Shown: positions 34,214-51,008, counted from the stretch's first letter. The stretch is 64,000 nt of DNA from an uncultured delta proteobacterium (GCA_963737905.1 CAVTUQ010000028.1:128001-192000), one strand, 5' to 3'. Numbers and translations are program-made. The notes: generated from the sequence alone by a model not told the origin.

Positions 34214-35404
34214 TTATATCCCGGGCTGAGTACCGACGCTCCGCTGTGCCCGTCTTTCCCAGATTCCTCGGGGTAAAACCATGCCGAAACCCAGCAAGCG
34301 AGGCTGAGCCCATAGAATTCGGCAAAGCATATGCGCCGCTTGGTCCCGATTGTAGCGACCCAATAGAAGAATCGTTTTTTCATTGAGCAGAGCAAGCAGC
34401 CGGTCATAATCTCTACTACGAAACCGGTTTAAGACACACCTGAGGATCAAGTGCAGGCCGAGTTCGCGCCGGAGCGGTTTTAATTCCGTCAAATAGTCCC
34501 TGCGTCGCAGAATCGCATCGGCCGCCGCTTTCGCGCCCCGAAGTCCGGTCACAAGCCCGCCCACCGTTGTCACCTTGACCTGGGCGGCAGCATCGCCCAC
34601 GAGATAGACATCGGCGCCGGAAACATTCTTCCATTGGCGCGTGAAATGACTGTACGCGGGTACGCGAGCGGCCTGAATGTCTAGAATCTCTAAGCCTTGT
34701 CGAGCCAGAAACTTTTCGAGTTTAGTTCTACCGTGCTTGCCTTCCTCGGCGATAAAGCCCACCGCCGCCTGTTTTTGCGACTCCGGAATCAACCAGTAAA
34801 AGTACGGCGTATCTTCGGGCTCGAACCAAACTTGAGTCGTGTTCACACTGGCTCCGTCCGGCAGCTTGACGATCGCCTGAAGGATCGGCGTCGTCCCATG
34901 ACCGTCGCCGGTGGCCATTTTTGCCACGCGACTGAAACTCCCGTCGGCGCCGACCAGCGTTTTGGTTTTGAATTTCTCGACGCGATTTCGATACGTATCG
35001 TTAATGGTAACCGTGACCCCTTGTTCCGCGGGCTCGAGACTGAGAAACTTGCAGCCGCCCCGGATTTCAACCCCTTCATCGAGAGCTCTTTGGGCAAGTA
35101 AGCGAACCACCGTAGAACGCTCGACAACGAGATCCGGCATTTGCATCGGGATCGTCACCGACCGCCCCGGAGAAAACAGATCGATTTGTGTGATCTTATT
35201 GCAAACCGCGTCGCGCGGGAAAAAACCCAGAACGTCCGTCAAATGAGAGGTCGTGATCAACGTGCGTGATTCTGTATGCAGCACGTCGTTCGCATCAAAG
35301 AGCCGTACTCTCTTACCTTCGCGCGCCAGCAAGTAAGCTGCGAACAGACCCGCTGCCGAACCACCGACGATATCGACTTCCGCCACGTCCCCGATTGCTT
35401 TCAT
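34214..35404 (-). CDS. Geranylgeranyl reductase family FAD-dependent oxidoreductase
   Basis: IVGGSAAG, VGADG..S.VA, YFYWLIP, LVGDAAAQVK.TT.GG. Confidence 0.85.
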   Translation of the reverse strand: MKAIGDVAEVDIVGGSAAGLFAAYLLAREGKRVRLFDANDVLHTESRTLITTSHLTDVLGFFPRDAVCNKITQIDLFSPGRSVTIPMQMPDLVVERSTVVRLLAQRALDEGVEIRGGCKFLSLEPAEQGVTVTINDTYRNRVEKFKTKTLVGADGSFSRVAKMATGDGHGTTPILQAIVKLPDGASVNTTQVWFEPEDTPYFYWLIPESQKQAAVGFIAEEGKHGRTKLEKFLARQGLEILDIQAARVPAYSHFTRQWKNVSGADVYLVGDAAAQVKVTTVGGLVTGLRGAKAAADAILRRRDYLTELKPLRRELGLHLILRCVLNRFRSRDYDRLLALLNEKTILLLGRYNRDQAAHMLCRILWAQPRLLGFGMVLPRGIWERRAQRSVGTQPGI

Positions 35405-35433
35405 CTATCGATTTATTCGCCCTACCTGTATGA

Positions 35434-36005
35434 AAGCACGGAGCATGGAGCGCGGAGCACGGAGCCGGACGGGGAAATTTCGGATTTCGAATTTCGGATT
35501 GTTTTCCGACTTCTGCTCTCGTGCTCCGTGCGCTCTGCTAGTTGCTCTTTGCTCCTGCGCTTACCGCTTAGCTCCTAGCGCTTTGCTCTTGGCTCCCCGC
35601 TCCAAGCTCCCTGCTCCCAGCTGTTTTTCAAATCCGCAATCCGCAATCCGAAATTGTTCTTTGCTCTTACCGCTTCCTCTTGCTCCCTGCTCTGAACCAG
35701 AGGTCAGAGATCGAGACATGTTCAGCCGCCGAATCAGTAAATTCGCAGATGCAGAAACCCGATCTAAATTCGCAATGCAGAAACCCGAAAGGCTCAAGTC
35801 AGAGGCCAGCAATTTCGCAATCTCCGCAATCTATCTTACTTAGCTCTTTGCGCTTAGCTCTTAGTCTTAGTAAATCCGCAATTCGCAATTCGAAATCCGC
35901 AATTGTCTTTGCTCTTCCCCCTTACCCCTTACCTATTTGCTCTTAGCTCCCTGCTCTCTTGCTCCCTGCCCCCTGCTCCCCGCTCCAAGCTCCCTGCTCC
36001 TTGCT
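35434..36005. repeat. Mosaic of 7-nt tandem repeats (GGAGCAN/GCTCCNN, ATCCGMA/TTCGGAT, TCAGAGG, CCCTTAC)
   Basis: Blocks directly visible, in both orientations; no credible ORF. Confidence 0.9.
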
Positions 36006-36192
36006 GTTCACCAAGTTGCCGGCCAGTAGACAGCGTCTACAGCAAGCAAATACCAACGCTTTTCAGATAGTTAGATGTTTTTACCTCGCGAGCTGACACC
36101 TGCGGTGAAAGCACTCGGATCTTACCAGGGCACTTCATGGAAAAATATCTCTTGTATTCAACGGTTTAGAGTAAATCCAAAATAGGATCAAT

Positions 36193-36208
36193 TGGCATAA
36201 CGGTTGCT
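36193..36208 (+). promoter_or_regulatory. Sigma-54 promoter
   Basis: TGGCATAACGGTTGCT (GG-N10-GC), AT-rich upstream with IHF-like ATTCAACGGTTTA. Confidence 0.6.
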
Positions 36209-36248
36209 CCTGTGATACTACAGATTAACCCAGGAAAGAAGAAAAAAA

Positions 36249-48685: not shown

Positions 48686-48759
48686 GATCGATACCGAGCT
48701 CTTTACGTCAGCGGCCAGAATCAGGCAGCATGGAGCCACGCTTTGCTCTTGGCACTTAG

Positions 48760-49620
48760 CTACCCCCGCTCCGTGCTATCCTTGTTCCCGACTTCGACTT
48801 CTGATGTTCGCCTTTCGCTCCTTGCTCCGTGCTCCATGCTCCTCGCTTCCTTGTCTGCAAAGTCTTCCTCAATCAGATAGAGCGCCAGCAGGATCTCCGC
48901 CAACATCCTTTGGAACGCGTAGTAAACACCAGCCCAGCCGTCGCGTATCGCGCCTTTGACGAATAGGCAGTAAAAGAAAATTACAAACGGAAAAAGAACT
49001 CGTGTTTTTCTCAGGCGATCGGGGAAACTCGGATCTACTTTTTTGGAACCACGTAGATGCACGATCTCCAGTCGCATGTAACGATCCTGCGATTTCAACC
49101 AGTGCGTCAATGGCTTTCGGTCATCATGCAGAATCGGCGAACGCAGTTCTCTCACTTCACCGTCAATCGCAACTCGTTGTGTGTGACCGTCCTGCTGGTA
49201 AATGGCATGCTCGCGGCGATAAAGCACGGTGACCGGTGGATATGCCGACCCACGCAGCGGCTTGCCGTGCACACAATACAAGAATCTAGCTTGATAGCCG
49301 TTAATTCCCGTTGGTGGTTTCAGGGCTTTCAACTCCTCGACCAAATCGGGGGTAAGGACATAGTCCGCGTCGATAGCGAGCACCCACTCGGAAGTAATGC
49401 CCGTTTCTTCAAAGCAAAATTCCATTGATTTTGATGGCGATCGAATCGCCGCTGAAACACGCGTACTTGCGGGATCTGCGAAGCAATCACTAATGTCGCA
49501 TCGTCGCTGAAGCTGTCGAGCAGCACGATATCACGGGCCCAACTCAGCGCGTGGAGACTGCGCCGGATGTTCGGCACTTCGTTGTAGGTCAGGACGATTG
49601 GAGTGATCTGATCGAGCAGC
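48760..49620 (-). CDS. GT2 glycosyltransferase (frameshifted)
   Basis: ITPIVLTYNE.PNI, LDSFSDD, WVLAIDAD, DGHTQR; repeat-derived tail. Confidence 0.8.
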
Positions 49621-49669
49621 GTTTCACCAAGAATTTTTACTGTATGAGACGGCCGGCGTTATTTTTACT

Positions 49670-50842
49670 CTATTCCATTCGTCCGAGTCTCAAGCCGCCA
49701 TATAGCGCTTTAAGTTGCTTCGCGACCGCTGGCCACGTGTACCGAGAGCGCACGAGCCTTTCTCCCGCCGCGCCTCTGGCGCGGCGCTCACCTGTATCCC
49801 GCAGCGCTTCCGTCAATCCCCGTTGCAAAGAATCACCTTCCAAATTCACCACCCAACCAGCCCCTGCCGCCTGGATTTCGTCTGACAGATTGACCCGAGT
49901 ACTGACCAGTACCGGTACACCGCAGGCCAAAGCCTCTACGACCGACAAACCGAAGTTTTCTTGAAACGATGGCAACACAACCAGATCCGCTCCACGTAAC
50001 GCCGCCGCTTTTCGCGCTCCATCTAACCAACCGGCAAAGATGACATTGTCACCGCATTTTTCAAATGCTAACCGTTTCAGCTTTTCGATATAATCGCGCT
50101 CGCCGTTACCAGCAATGACCAGCTTCCACCCTTTTTGCTCCTCCTTGTTTTGTCACGGCCGAAAAGACTTCCAGTAAGGACTCGATGTTCTTTTTATGAT
50201 GGACGCGAGAGAGCAGTAAAACGTAAGGCGAATTTGCCAATTTCGGAAAAAGCTCTCGAAAATTCTCAGCTGACCCTCTGAGTAATTCCTGATTGACACC
50301 GAGCGGGATAACAACGCCGGAATTAATCCCTAGCCCGTCTTCAGCTAGCTGCTTCTCAGCCGCCGTCGTGTAATGGATGGCGCGCGCGCCATCGAGCATT
50401 TGATTCACGCCCATTCGGAACAAAATCTTCTTGGCGAAGCGTTTTTGGCTTAAGCTCCAAGGATCTAGAGAGCCCAAAGGCCGGACAATGTATGGAACGT
50501 TTTTGTTTTCGCATGCGCGTGCCGCCGCGAGACTAGAATGCGAGAAAACGGCGTGAATATGGACAACATCAAAGTCTTCCACGTTTTTGTCCAGCCAACG
50601 GGCTAGAAGATGCGAATATTTGAATGCCTCGCTCAATTGACGGGGAAAGAAGATGGTCGGAACACCTTCATAGACAACGGGCCTCCCACACTCCACTGCC
50701 AAGCGAGCCTCACCATCAGCATCGGTCGTGGCGATCAAAACTTCCACTTCTTCAGACCGAAGTGCCTGGCACATTTGGATGACGGCTTGGCTCGGCCCGC
50801 CGTATCGTGGCGCAACCGCGGGATAACGTGGAGAACCTTCAT
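49670..50842 (-). CDS. GT4 glycosyltransferase (frameshifted)
   Basis: MKVLHVI, PRYGGPS, LSRVHHKKN, LPSFQENFGLSVVEALACG. Confidence 0.85.
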
Positions 50843-50850
50843 GACAATAA

Positions 50851-51008
50851 CCAGAGGTCAGATGATCAGAGATCGAGCAGTCAGAGCCGGGAGCGTATGA
50901 GCAAAGAGCTAAGAGCAAAGCGCAAAGCGCTTTGCTCTTTTGCTCCAAGCTCCCTCCTCCTTGCCATTTACGCCTTACACTTCACTCCTTACGCGCTAAC
51001 CGTTACGC
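50851..51008. repeat. 7-nt repeat mosaic at asnB/GT junction
   Basis: TCAGAGG, GAGCAAA/TTTGCTC inverted pair, CCTTACG blocks. Confidence 0.8.

Follow-up and report, generated by a model that had tools for sequence, protein, structure and literature searches.

Fixed handedness of inverted heptamer arrays and their association with PF05635 genes in an uncultured bacterial genome

Short palindromic elements of the REP and REPIN type are dispersed through the spacers of bacterial genomes, and the RAYT transposase gene is flanked by repeats of its own family. Heptamer repeats of another kind, the STRR sequences that Mazel and colleagues are said to have described in 1990, reportedly form tandem intergenic arrays in cyanobacteria, with several unit families per genome. 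This article concerns tandem arrays of 7-nucleotide (nt) units in the draft genome of an uncultured bacterium, and in particular in a stretch of 64,000 nt (GCA_963737905.1, CAVTUQ010000028.1:128001-192000; here called the window and corresponding to G000:C28:128001-192000), and examines the rule by which the G-rich and C-rich forms of these units are placed relative to genes. To our knowledge, polar heptamer repeats have stood without explanation since 2015, and we know of no role for PF05635 proteins, whose genes are found among the arrays, outside diversity-generating retroelements.

The nearest precedent for the rule is Rehm 2015 (PMC4692102), the abstract and sections 13 and 16 of which describe G-rich heptamers, GGGAATC in Xanthomonas and GGGGA(C/T)T in Nostoc PCC 7120, that are enriched in non-coding DNA and under-represented between divergent open reading frames (ORFs). 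In that account the G-rich strand lies closer to the 5' ORF whatever the ORF orientation, inverted pairs are able to form stem-loops, and G-quadruplexes are proposed, with no mechanism for the positional rule offered in those parts of the paper. A second relevant system is the Coxiella burnetii intervening sequence (IVS), for which excerpts of PMC4990558 describe an S23p ORF in a stem-loop of terminal inverted repeats, heptamers in tandem that lie upstream of the ORF and vary in unit number between strains, and excision by RNase III; IVS with an S23p/PF05635 ORF are cited there from Leptospira and other bacteria as well. A third, as presented in the abstract of MacGregor 2015 (PMC4679880), comprises direct repeats of a single unit, TAACTGA, upstream of starts in Beggiatoaceae, Cyanobacteria, and Bacteroidetes (169 direct sets and one indirect), for which a function as translational regulator is proposed. 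The positional rule is thus already published for Xanthomonas and Nostoc (PMC4692102), and the genome treated here is a further example of it.

Polarity and handedness of the arrays

An initial annotation of window positions 35404-51008 had reported that, in mRNA sense, G-rich forms of the heptamers lie at or after stops and the complementary C-rich forms precede starts, and had proposed that orientation be tabulated genome-wide against the nearest start or stop. The genome is a draft of 6.7 Mb in 46 contigs (87% complete, 6.7% contamination), in which a crude, home-made gene finder based on a dicodon model called 6157 genes (81% coding) with approximate start positions. Chains of the core motifs number 52, 73, 69, and 13 at a period of 7, compared with 0-4 at periods 5, 6, and 8-11, and most arrays are intergenic across the genome. 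Each intergenic array was scored by which of its flanking genes is nearer. Of the two flanking genes, the 5' one is the nearer to the G-form array in 34 of 39 cases for GGAGCNN, 50 of 65 for ATRGCNN, 18 of 24 for CAGAGGT, and 9 of 10 for GGGTAAG, while for the TTGAAC core the 5'-anchored form is GTTCAAN (115/145); p values per family range from 2e-6 to 6e-13. Orientation relative to the nearest start or stop is therefore non-random, and the observation that gave rise to the rule is real and statistically solid.

Many of the arrays stand beside paralogous genes, such as tandem genes for ABC substrate-binding proteins, and kinship was controlled for by collapsing arrays according to the protein families of the flanking genes. 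The polarity remains after paralogous contexts have been collapsed in this way (GGAGCNN 16:1, ATRGCNN 26:6, CAGAGGT 13:3, GGGTAAG 9:1, GTTCAAN 66:16), and it persists outside the region that was first annotated. Perfect threefold repeats of GGAGCNN occur 46 times in the genome, 23 forward and 23 reverse, with a single match to the reversed-pattern control; in 60 other genomes of the order, one of which belongs to the same genus, no more than one such repeat was found per genome. None of the findings presented here depends on the unpublished genomes G006 and G012. Chance, or tracking of the replication strand, could be entertained in view of the small sample of genes in the first annotation, nearly all from one strand, but is next to inconceivable given a period-7 signal more than ten-fold above that of other periods, the significance of each family and its survival of the paralogue collapse, the alternation of the two forms along one strand, and the even split between forward and reverse copies.

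Several further properties of the arrays bear on their placement. Divergent spacers contain 2/145 arrays of GTTCAAN, 4/39 of GGAGCNN, and 10/65 of ATRGCNN (counts that are not normalized for the number or length of spacers of each type). Arrays adjoin or overlap the ends of genes, 38% of those of GGAGCNN being within 10 nt. Lone arrays, with no same-family partner detected in the spacer, are likewise 5'-anchored (GGAGCNN 22:2, ATRGCNN 14:6, CAGAGGT 15:5, GGGTAAG 9:1, GTTCAAN 42:14). GGAGCNN, GATTKCG, CAGAGGT, and GGGTAAG cluster on contig C28 at about 163-210 kb. GGGTAAG precedes GGAGCNN in 4:0 cases; the idea that families keep a set order inside an arm was considered and fails, GGAGCNN preceding GATTKCG by only 9:5. 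The TTGAAC core is also arrayed at periods of 9 (219 chains) and 8 (47 chains), beside its 157 chains at period 7.

Within the annotated region, the expected forms were found at 18 of 18 coordinates. The ratios of G to C motif matches downstream of stops, in mRNA sense, are 6:2 at 36791(+), 6:0 at 36968, 3:1 at 37851, 1:1 at 38757(+), 8:0 at 39115, 2:1 at 40493, 5:2 at 41674, 6:0 at 45684, 2:1 at 48760, and 5:0 at 51003, such that G-forms equal or outnumber C-forms after all ten stops, weakly at 38757, 40493, and 48760. Upstream of starts the corresponding ratios are 0:4 at 35404, 0:5 at 37648, 0:2 at 38216, 0:6 at 40344, 0:6 at 41473, 0:8 at 42681, 1:1 at 44905, and 0:5 at 50842, so that C-forms equal or outnumber G-forms before all eight, weakly at 44905. 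Positions 45684, 48760, 51003, 50842, and 36968 border gene fragments or array-encoded ORF tails and not intact genes. One of the motif pairs to which the rule had been applied, GAUUKCG/AUCCGMA, is only weakly polar genome-wide (19 vs. 9, p=0.087, from a corrected pattern, the initial one having matched both strands of AAATTCG arrays) and shows no polarity in the annotated region itself (7 vs. 6). The accompanying remark that the starts mostly lack a Shine-Dalgarno (SD) sequence is correct for these starts and has no bearing on the polarity: GGAG, GAGG, or AGGA is present at -20..-4 in 0/8 of them, and genome-wide an SD core is found at 36% of 4955 predicted starts (control 8%).

The rule had been taken to follow gene direction and not DNA strand, which is right in part. 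The forms alternate within 16 kb and perfect GGAGCNN repeats are evenly divided between strands, as would be expected if neither the DNA strand nor the replication strand matters, but the rule holds no information on gene direction either. Among 5'-anchored arrays, positions after a stop and before a start are about equally frequent (19 vs. 15 for GGAGCNN, 28 vs. 22 for ATRGCNN, 7 vs. 11 for CAGAGGT). Because a co-oriented 5' gene reads as G after a stop and an opposed one as C before a start, and both are about equally common, the rule reduces to the statement that a spacer, read on either strand, opens with G-forms and closes with C-forms. Arm order was examined separately, without gene calls, in adjacent inverted arrays of the same family no more than 400 nt apart. 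The G arm comes first in 11:0 pairs of GGAGCNN and 23:0 of ATRGCNN, and GTTCAAN precedes NTTGAAC in 43:2. A motif-free scan that yielded 87 inverted period-7 pairs gave a first arm richer in G than in C for GTTCAAN (33:5), TCGAGGA (6:0), GTTTCGA (10:0), ATGGC (4:0), GGAGC (6:0), and AAGAGC (3:0), no clear order for AAATCCG (5:6), CTGAAAC (2:1), and CAGAGGT (1:1), and no C-first family among its groups. Since GTTTCGA is pyrimidine-rich yet contains more G than C, an excess of G describes the first arm better than an excess of purines. The polarity is, in short, a fixed and strand-symmetric handedness of inverted repeats.

The first interpretation had been selection at the transcript or translation level. 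Selection in each mRNA would imply that SD-like, AUG-bearing G-forms do no harm or are of use after stops, for example by keeping ribosomes there for re-initiation, and that directly before starts they are harmful and C-forms alone survive; SD-like cores do occur in the G-forms of GGAGCNN, TCGAGGA, and CAGAGGT, and AUG in GGAGCATGGAGC and ATGGC units, and the contrast in SD content between the eight starts and the genome at large points the same way. Such selection could also work on whole families and so fix their handedness. As an explanation of the rule it nevertheless appears unlikely. The rule is logically identical for either gene orientation, so orientation counts cannot back it, and GTTCAAN and GTTTCGA, which have neither SD nor AUG content, share the same handedness. 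Hairpins of the ATRGCNN and GTTCAAN families bear asymmetric markers (the loop is conserved, and one arm has a variant unit). In co-directional spacers these markers display no gene-sense bias, running with and against the genes in ratios of 7:3 and 8:9. A selected sense transcript should, moreover, fold better than its antisense through G·U pairs; no difference in stability was seen, the sense strand being better in 8, 17, and 3 hairpins and the antisense in 6, 15, and 3 (28 vs. 24 in total). G-form arrays are also translated within a protein linker, and PF05635 genes carry G arms before their own starts. The first interpretation is thus not supported, although RNA-level selection acting on whole families may set the G-arm-first order.

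G-quadruplex formation, as proposed for GGGAATC and GGGGAYT, would have the G arm act through such a structure near gene ends. The positional rule is the same as the one given in Rehm 2015 (PMC4692102), and units of the GGGTAAG type have runs of G, but GGAGCNN, ATRGCNN, GTTCAAN, GTTTCGA, and CAGAGGT contain no run of three G and obey the same rule, which contradicts quadruplex action for most families of this genome and makes it very improbable as the explanation.

Hairpins, cassettes, and PF05635 genes

The rule is probably best explained by hairpin elements of fixed handedness that reside in spacers and resemble IVS in the form of PF05635 cassettes. Each element would be an inverted repeat of heptamer arrays, with the arm richer in G than in C on the 5' side and its complement on the 3' side, wedged into a short spacer such that a G-form array comes after the left gene and a C-form array before the right one. 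An inverted repeat reads alike on both strands, and G after stops and C before starts would consequently be obtained for genes on either strand. As in the IVS of 23S rRNA, the elements would be cassettes in which a small gene for a four-helix bundle (PF05635) occupies the loop of a heptamer stem, with many copies geneless or decayed to a single arm. Once transcribed, the hairpins would be expected to fold and to undergo RNase III cleavage, as happens in rRNA; unit numbers would drift through slippage.

Several lines of evidence argue for this arrangement. ATRGCNN and GTTCAAN form neat dispersed hairpins in both orientations, the copies of which share the order of their variable units and, for ATRGCNN, the loop as well; the stems are strong, at about -34 kcal/mol per ~80 nt. 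A unit of 776 nt is duplicated in the window, at 37652-38413 and 44910-45648, with 89% identity by BLAST, 91% mean column identity in an alignment, and a near-identical core. Whole cassettes have thus been copied, each consisting of a PF05635 gene (37851-38216, E=9e-17; 45013-45591, E=4e-15) with flanking arrays and abutting the start codon of the next gene. The genome contains 11 PF05635 matches, 6 of which have an array within 150 nt, compared with 2.1% of 5000 random sites. Tandem heptamers lie directly upstream of the PF05635 ORF, and in gene sense the G-form array is upstream and its complement downstream, both arms being present in 10 of 14 genes (the 11 here and 3 in the relatives G016 and G005) and reversed outer arms in none of the 14 inspected. 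Having a G arm before the start and a C arm after the stop, these genes are exceptions to the rule as first worded because they sit in the hairpin loop.

The identity of the arms follows that of the protein. CAGAGGT arms are shared by the PF05635 genes at C28:194713 and in G005, whose proteins are 85% identical, and GGAGC arms by those at C28:202739 and in G016, with proteins of 67% identity; the window pair, 95% identical, has GATTKCG arms; and the gene on contig C9 and those on C7 have ATRGC and GTTCAA arms, respectively. Across genera, each PF05635 lineage is thus matched by a heptamer family of its own. All three genera have a PF05635 cassette in the spacer that lies upstream of the carbamoyltransferase gene described below, and BLAST found no match between the protein of the window copy and those of the two other genera at the same site. 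The three proteins are non-orthologous, so the site has been occupied repeatedly. Every cassette copy seen is located between protein-coding genes or within one, and none in 23S rRNA helices. A degenerate partner on the 3' side (duplex of -20 kcal/mol or stronger) accompanies 18/24 lone GGAGCNN and 15/20 lone ATRGCNN arrays, while most CAGAGGT, GGGTAAG, and lone GTTCAAN arrays are without one and are presumably decayed half-elements. TRF lists 606 period-9 arrays in the genome, and the PF05635 gene at C7:223004 is flanked by a 9-nt version.

Arrays could alternatively have arisen in place at the DNA level, through slippage or the addition of repeats to 3' ends at breaks in spacers, leaving the G strand to lead away from genes as in head-to-head telomeres. 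On either side the G strand is indeed directed away from the gene closest to it, the families are as lineage-specific as the GGAGCNN counts in the order indicate, arrays abut or overlap gene ends and lie between the fragments of broken genes, and the number of units varies between strains in the Coxiella IVS, according to the excerpts of PMC4990558. Dispersed copies with a common unit order and common loops, the duplication of whole cassettes, and an arm family that follows the PF05635 lineage across genera do not fit such an origin, for which no candidate enzyme was identified, and we give it a slimmer chance than selection in each mRNA.

A number of points weigh against hairpin elements as the explanation. 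The copies within a family share descent, and the independent sample is accordingly about 6-8 families and not some 80 pairs; GATTKCG is only weakly polar, and CAGAGGT pairs are evenly divided. Lone arrays without a partner are still 5'-anchored (as the CAGAGGT and GGGTAAG ratios above illustrate). Neither a target-site duplication nor an empty site nor a mobilizing enzyme was found; the cassettes have inverted arms, and the two window copies are without an obvious duplicated flank. The pairing of protein and arm consists of two cross-genus pairs plus cases within the genome, and simple linkage without recognition would give the same result. The gene calls are home-made, the draft is incomplete and somewhat contaminated, and the folding and processing of transcribed hairpins are steps that we infer.

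Why the G arm should come first is a matter for which candidate reasons may be given: the master copy may require it, for instance to have an SD-like 5' arm ahead of the PF05635 ORF; the 5' arm may be exposed while transcription proceeds, which would matter, for instance, if C-rich Rho loading sites are avoided; or the reason may lie in the way in which arms are made. Avoidance of Rho is possible for the 5' arm of hairpins; as a rule that would place every array in G-form in the sense strand it is unsupported, lone arrays before starts often being C-form in sense. Codon-based ideas, of stop-rich or open arms, were considered on inspection of the units and do not fit all families. More tentatively, and with rather less than even confidence, the PF05635 genes could be the master copies of a REPIN/RAYT-like system, whose lineages would spread with, and perhaps act on, their own hairpin, multiplying it in geneless form through operon spacers, decaying genes, and, in frame, protein linkers; the rule across phyla would then be the handedness of the cassette, set by what the master copy or co-transcriptional folding requires (e.g., a G-rich 5' arm that is Rho-resistant or SD-like). 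A cross-phylum check of 80 gmd loci yielded a single inverted heptamer pair, which is too small a number to draw on.

The surrounding gene cluster and effects of the arrays on genes

The arrays of the window (Table 1) lie in and around a polysaccharide-synthesis cluster at 35.4-53 kb. Its products include a sugar transferase, GT4 glycosyltransferases, an epimerase, a GDP-mannose dehydratase (gmd), and a carbamoyltransferase, together with asparagine-synthase fragments, GH123_N-like fragments, and the pair of small genes assigned to PF05635 ("23S rRNA intervening sequence protein"). The spacers of the cluster are tandem heptamers almost throughout, with the units GGAGCNN, GATTKCG, CAGAGGT, ATRGCNN, and GGGTAAG and their complements. 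The divergent spacer at 35405-36248 has ~600 nt of arrays in its 844 nt, and unique sequence is confined to the last ~240 nt before a plus-strand gene for a FecR-domain protein; promoters must therefore be situated inside or next to arrays.

Table 1. Heptamer arrays and associated features of the window, with two orthologous loci in relatives
Feature	Position	Strand	Remark
GGAGCNN x4 then ATTTCGG x3 (G-forms on + strand)	35435-35500		Beside start of minus-strand gene at 35404
Long C-form run (GCTCY, AATCCGM, CTTACCC) and short CAGAGGT block	35542-36005		Right half of divergent spacer
Convergent spacer: GGAGCNN x4, AATCCGM, NNGCTCC (G arm, then C arm)	36792-36967
Arrays coding last ~42 residues of Bac_transf ORF 36968-37648	36979-37077		Pfam domain ends at residue 184/226
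PF05635 cassette copy 1: ATTTCGG arm, gene 37851-38216, AAATCCG arm, GCTCC arm	37652-38413	-
Spacer of 357 nt, C-forms on + strand, CAGAGGT block	38758-39114		In sense of gene 39115-40344: GGGTAAG, GGAGCNN, GATTKCG G-forms
GT4 start/epimerase stop spacer: GGAGCNN x5, then degenerate C-forms	40345-40492
Epimerase start/gmd stop spacer	41474-41673		+ strand order CAGAGGT, GGAGCNN, CAGAGAT, GATTKCG, NNGCTCC
ATRGCNN array, ~20 units	42690-42850		8 nt from gmd start; C-form in gmd sense
In-frame arrays in carbamoyltransferase linker, gene-sense order CGTGAGG, GGAGCNN, TTCGGAT	43639-43772, within 43604-43862	-
PF05635 cassette copy 2	44910-45648	-	Between carbamoyltransferase start (44905) and stop at 45684; its core shares 95-99% identity with copy 1
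G-forms GGGTAAG, GGAGCNN, GATTKCG (mRNA sense) after stop 45684	45592-45683		Upstream arm of cassette copy 2
GCTCCTT x5 within ORF 48760-49425	48817-48853		ORF with no Pfam family
CAGAGAT and GAGCAAA arrays	50852-51002		mRNA-sense G-rich spacer between Asn-synthase and GT4 fragments
ATTTCGG, CTGAGCT, CAGAGGT arrays	51484-51571		Between two asparagine-synthase fragments
Orthologues with linker inserts	L011:7134-8966; L012:2427-4241		Two other genera

An effect on a protein is seen in the carbamoyltransferase. Its minus-strand ORF 43083-44438 contains an in-frame heptamer insert at residues 226-269, corresponding to residues 403-414 of the solved homologue 7xb6_A, which adds ~32 residues to an inter-domain linker. 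The orthologues of G016 and G005, which are intact, have inserts encoded by arrays at that same site, the one in G005 belonging to the CAGAGGT family. The gene here is divided into overlapping ORFs, 44357-44905 and 43083-44438, and tblastn with the intact orthologues (610 and 604 amino acids) changes frame at ~44400-44500, reflecting a genuine frameshift or else an error of assembly. Elsewhere in the genome, tandem ABC substrate-binding paralogues (G000:C7:404-411 kb, C27:2-21 kb, and C31:62-63 kb) have a GGAGCNN array directly after each stop and an NNGCTCC array within the signal-peptide coding part of the next gene. At C27:11361/11441 an upstream ATG is out of frame, and one extra 7-nt unit would restore the frame; this arrangement is a possible candidate for an on/off switch. 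For annotation it matters that arrays can lengthen ORFs, break a gene into parts, and enlarge a protein linker by 30-50 residues.

Gene remnants occupy window positions 45684-48739, 49426-50948, and 51003-52154. They comprise GH123_N-like ORF pieces, a GT4 gene without its C-terminal half, and two asparagine-synthase fragments between which ~88 profile positions are missing, and the cluster seems to be decaying. A TumE-family toxin ORF at L012:8309-8689 adjoins the polysaccharide cluster of the relative G005. A dispersed repeat of ~140 nt at 42908-43047, which is not heptameric and has more than 25 copies of 72-87% identity on many contigs, looks like a MITE-type element. Contigs from soil metagenomes that match the region are short, 88-95% alike, and mostly joined to it repeat to repeat.

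The host is probably a member of the Acidobacteriota, a tentative placement suggested by one gene, gmd, whose best named matches are metagenome-assembled genomes of Acidobacteriota and Pyrinomonadaceae at 75-78% identity. A cyanobacterial host, which the STRR-like heptamers might suggest, was ruled out because no PF00124 match is present in the genome (87% complete) and the best named gmd matches are to Acidobacteriota.

Comparison with known repeat systems

The repeats of Rehm 2015, as described in the abstract and sections 13 and 16 of PMC4692102, are like those of this genome in being tandem 7-nt intergenic units that obey the same rule of a G strand near the 5' ORF. They differ in their units, most of those here having no G-quadruplex potential, and in the host, which here is probably an acidobacterium from soil; and the arrays described here are the arms of dispersed hairpins and PF05635 cassettes, which those parts of the paper do not report. 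What the present genome adds is that the polarity holds for unit families incapable of forming G-quadruplexes, that it is a handedness of strand-symmetric hairpins and not a gene-sense signal, and that the arms associate with particular PF05635 lineages across genera. A descriptive rule is thereby turned into a set of questions, namely, whether the protein binds its own arms, whether RNase III cuts the hairpins, and whether swapped handedness harms the expression of neighboring genes.

The cyanobacterial STRR sequences resemble the arrays in being tandem intergenic heptamers of several families, in a host group to which this bacterium does not belong. With the REPIN/RAYT systems the elements share dispersed palindromes and a gene flanked by its own repeat family, the protein in question being a four-helix bundle and not a Y1 transposase. 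Mobilization of the RAYT type was considered and rejected: 5 PF01797 genes are present, at distances of 5.9 kb to 91 kb from the closest array, except on one contig, which is without arrays. The TAACTGA repeats (PMC4679880) are similarly heptamers a few nt from starts, in spacers that seldom have canonical ribosome-binding sites; a two-armed polarity is absent from the abstract of that study.

The closest structural parallel is with the IVS of 23S rRNA, which, in the excerpts of PMC4990558, likewise have a PF05635 ORF in the loop of an inverted-repeat stem with heptamers directly upstream of it. Cutting by RNase III is only something that we infer for the elements described here, the stems of which are almost wholly heptamer arrays; and whereas IVS occupy helix 25 or 45 of 23S rRNA, these cassettes are found between protein-coding genes and, in one case, within a protein linker.

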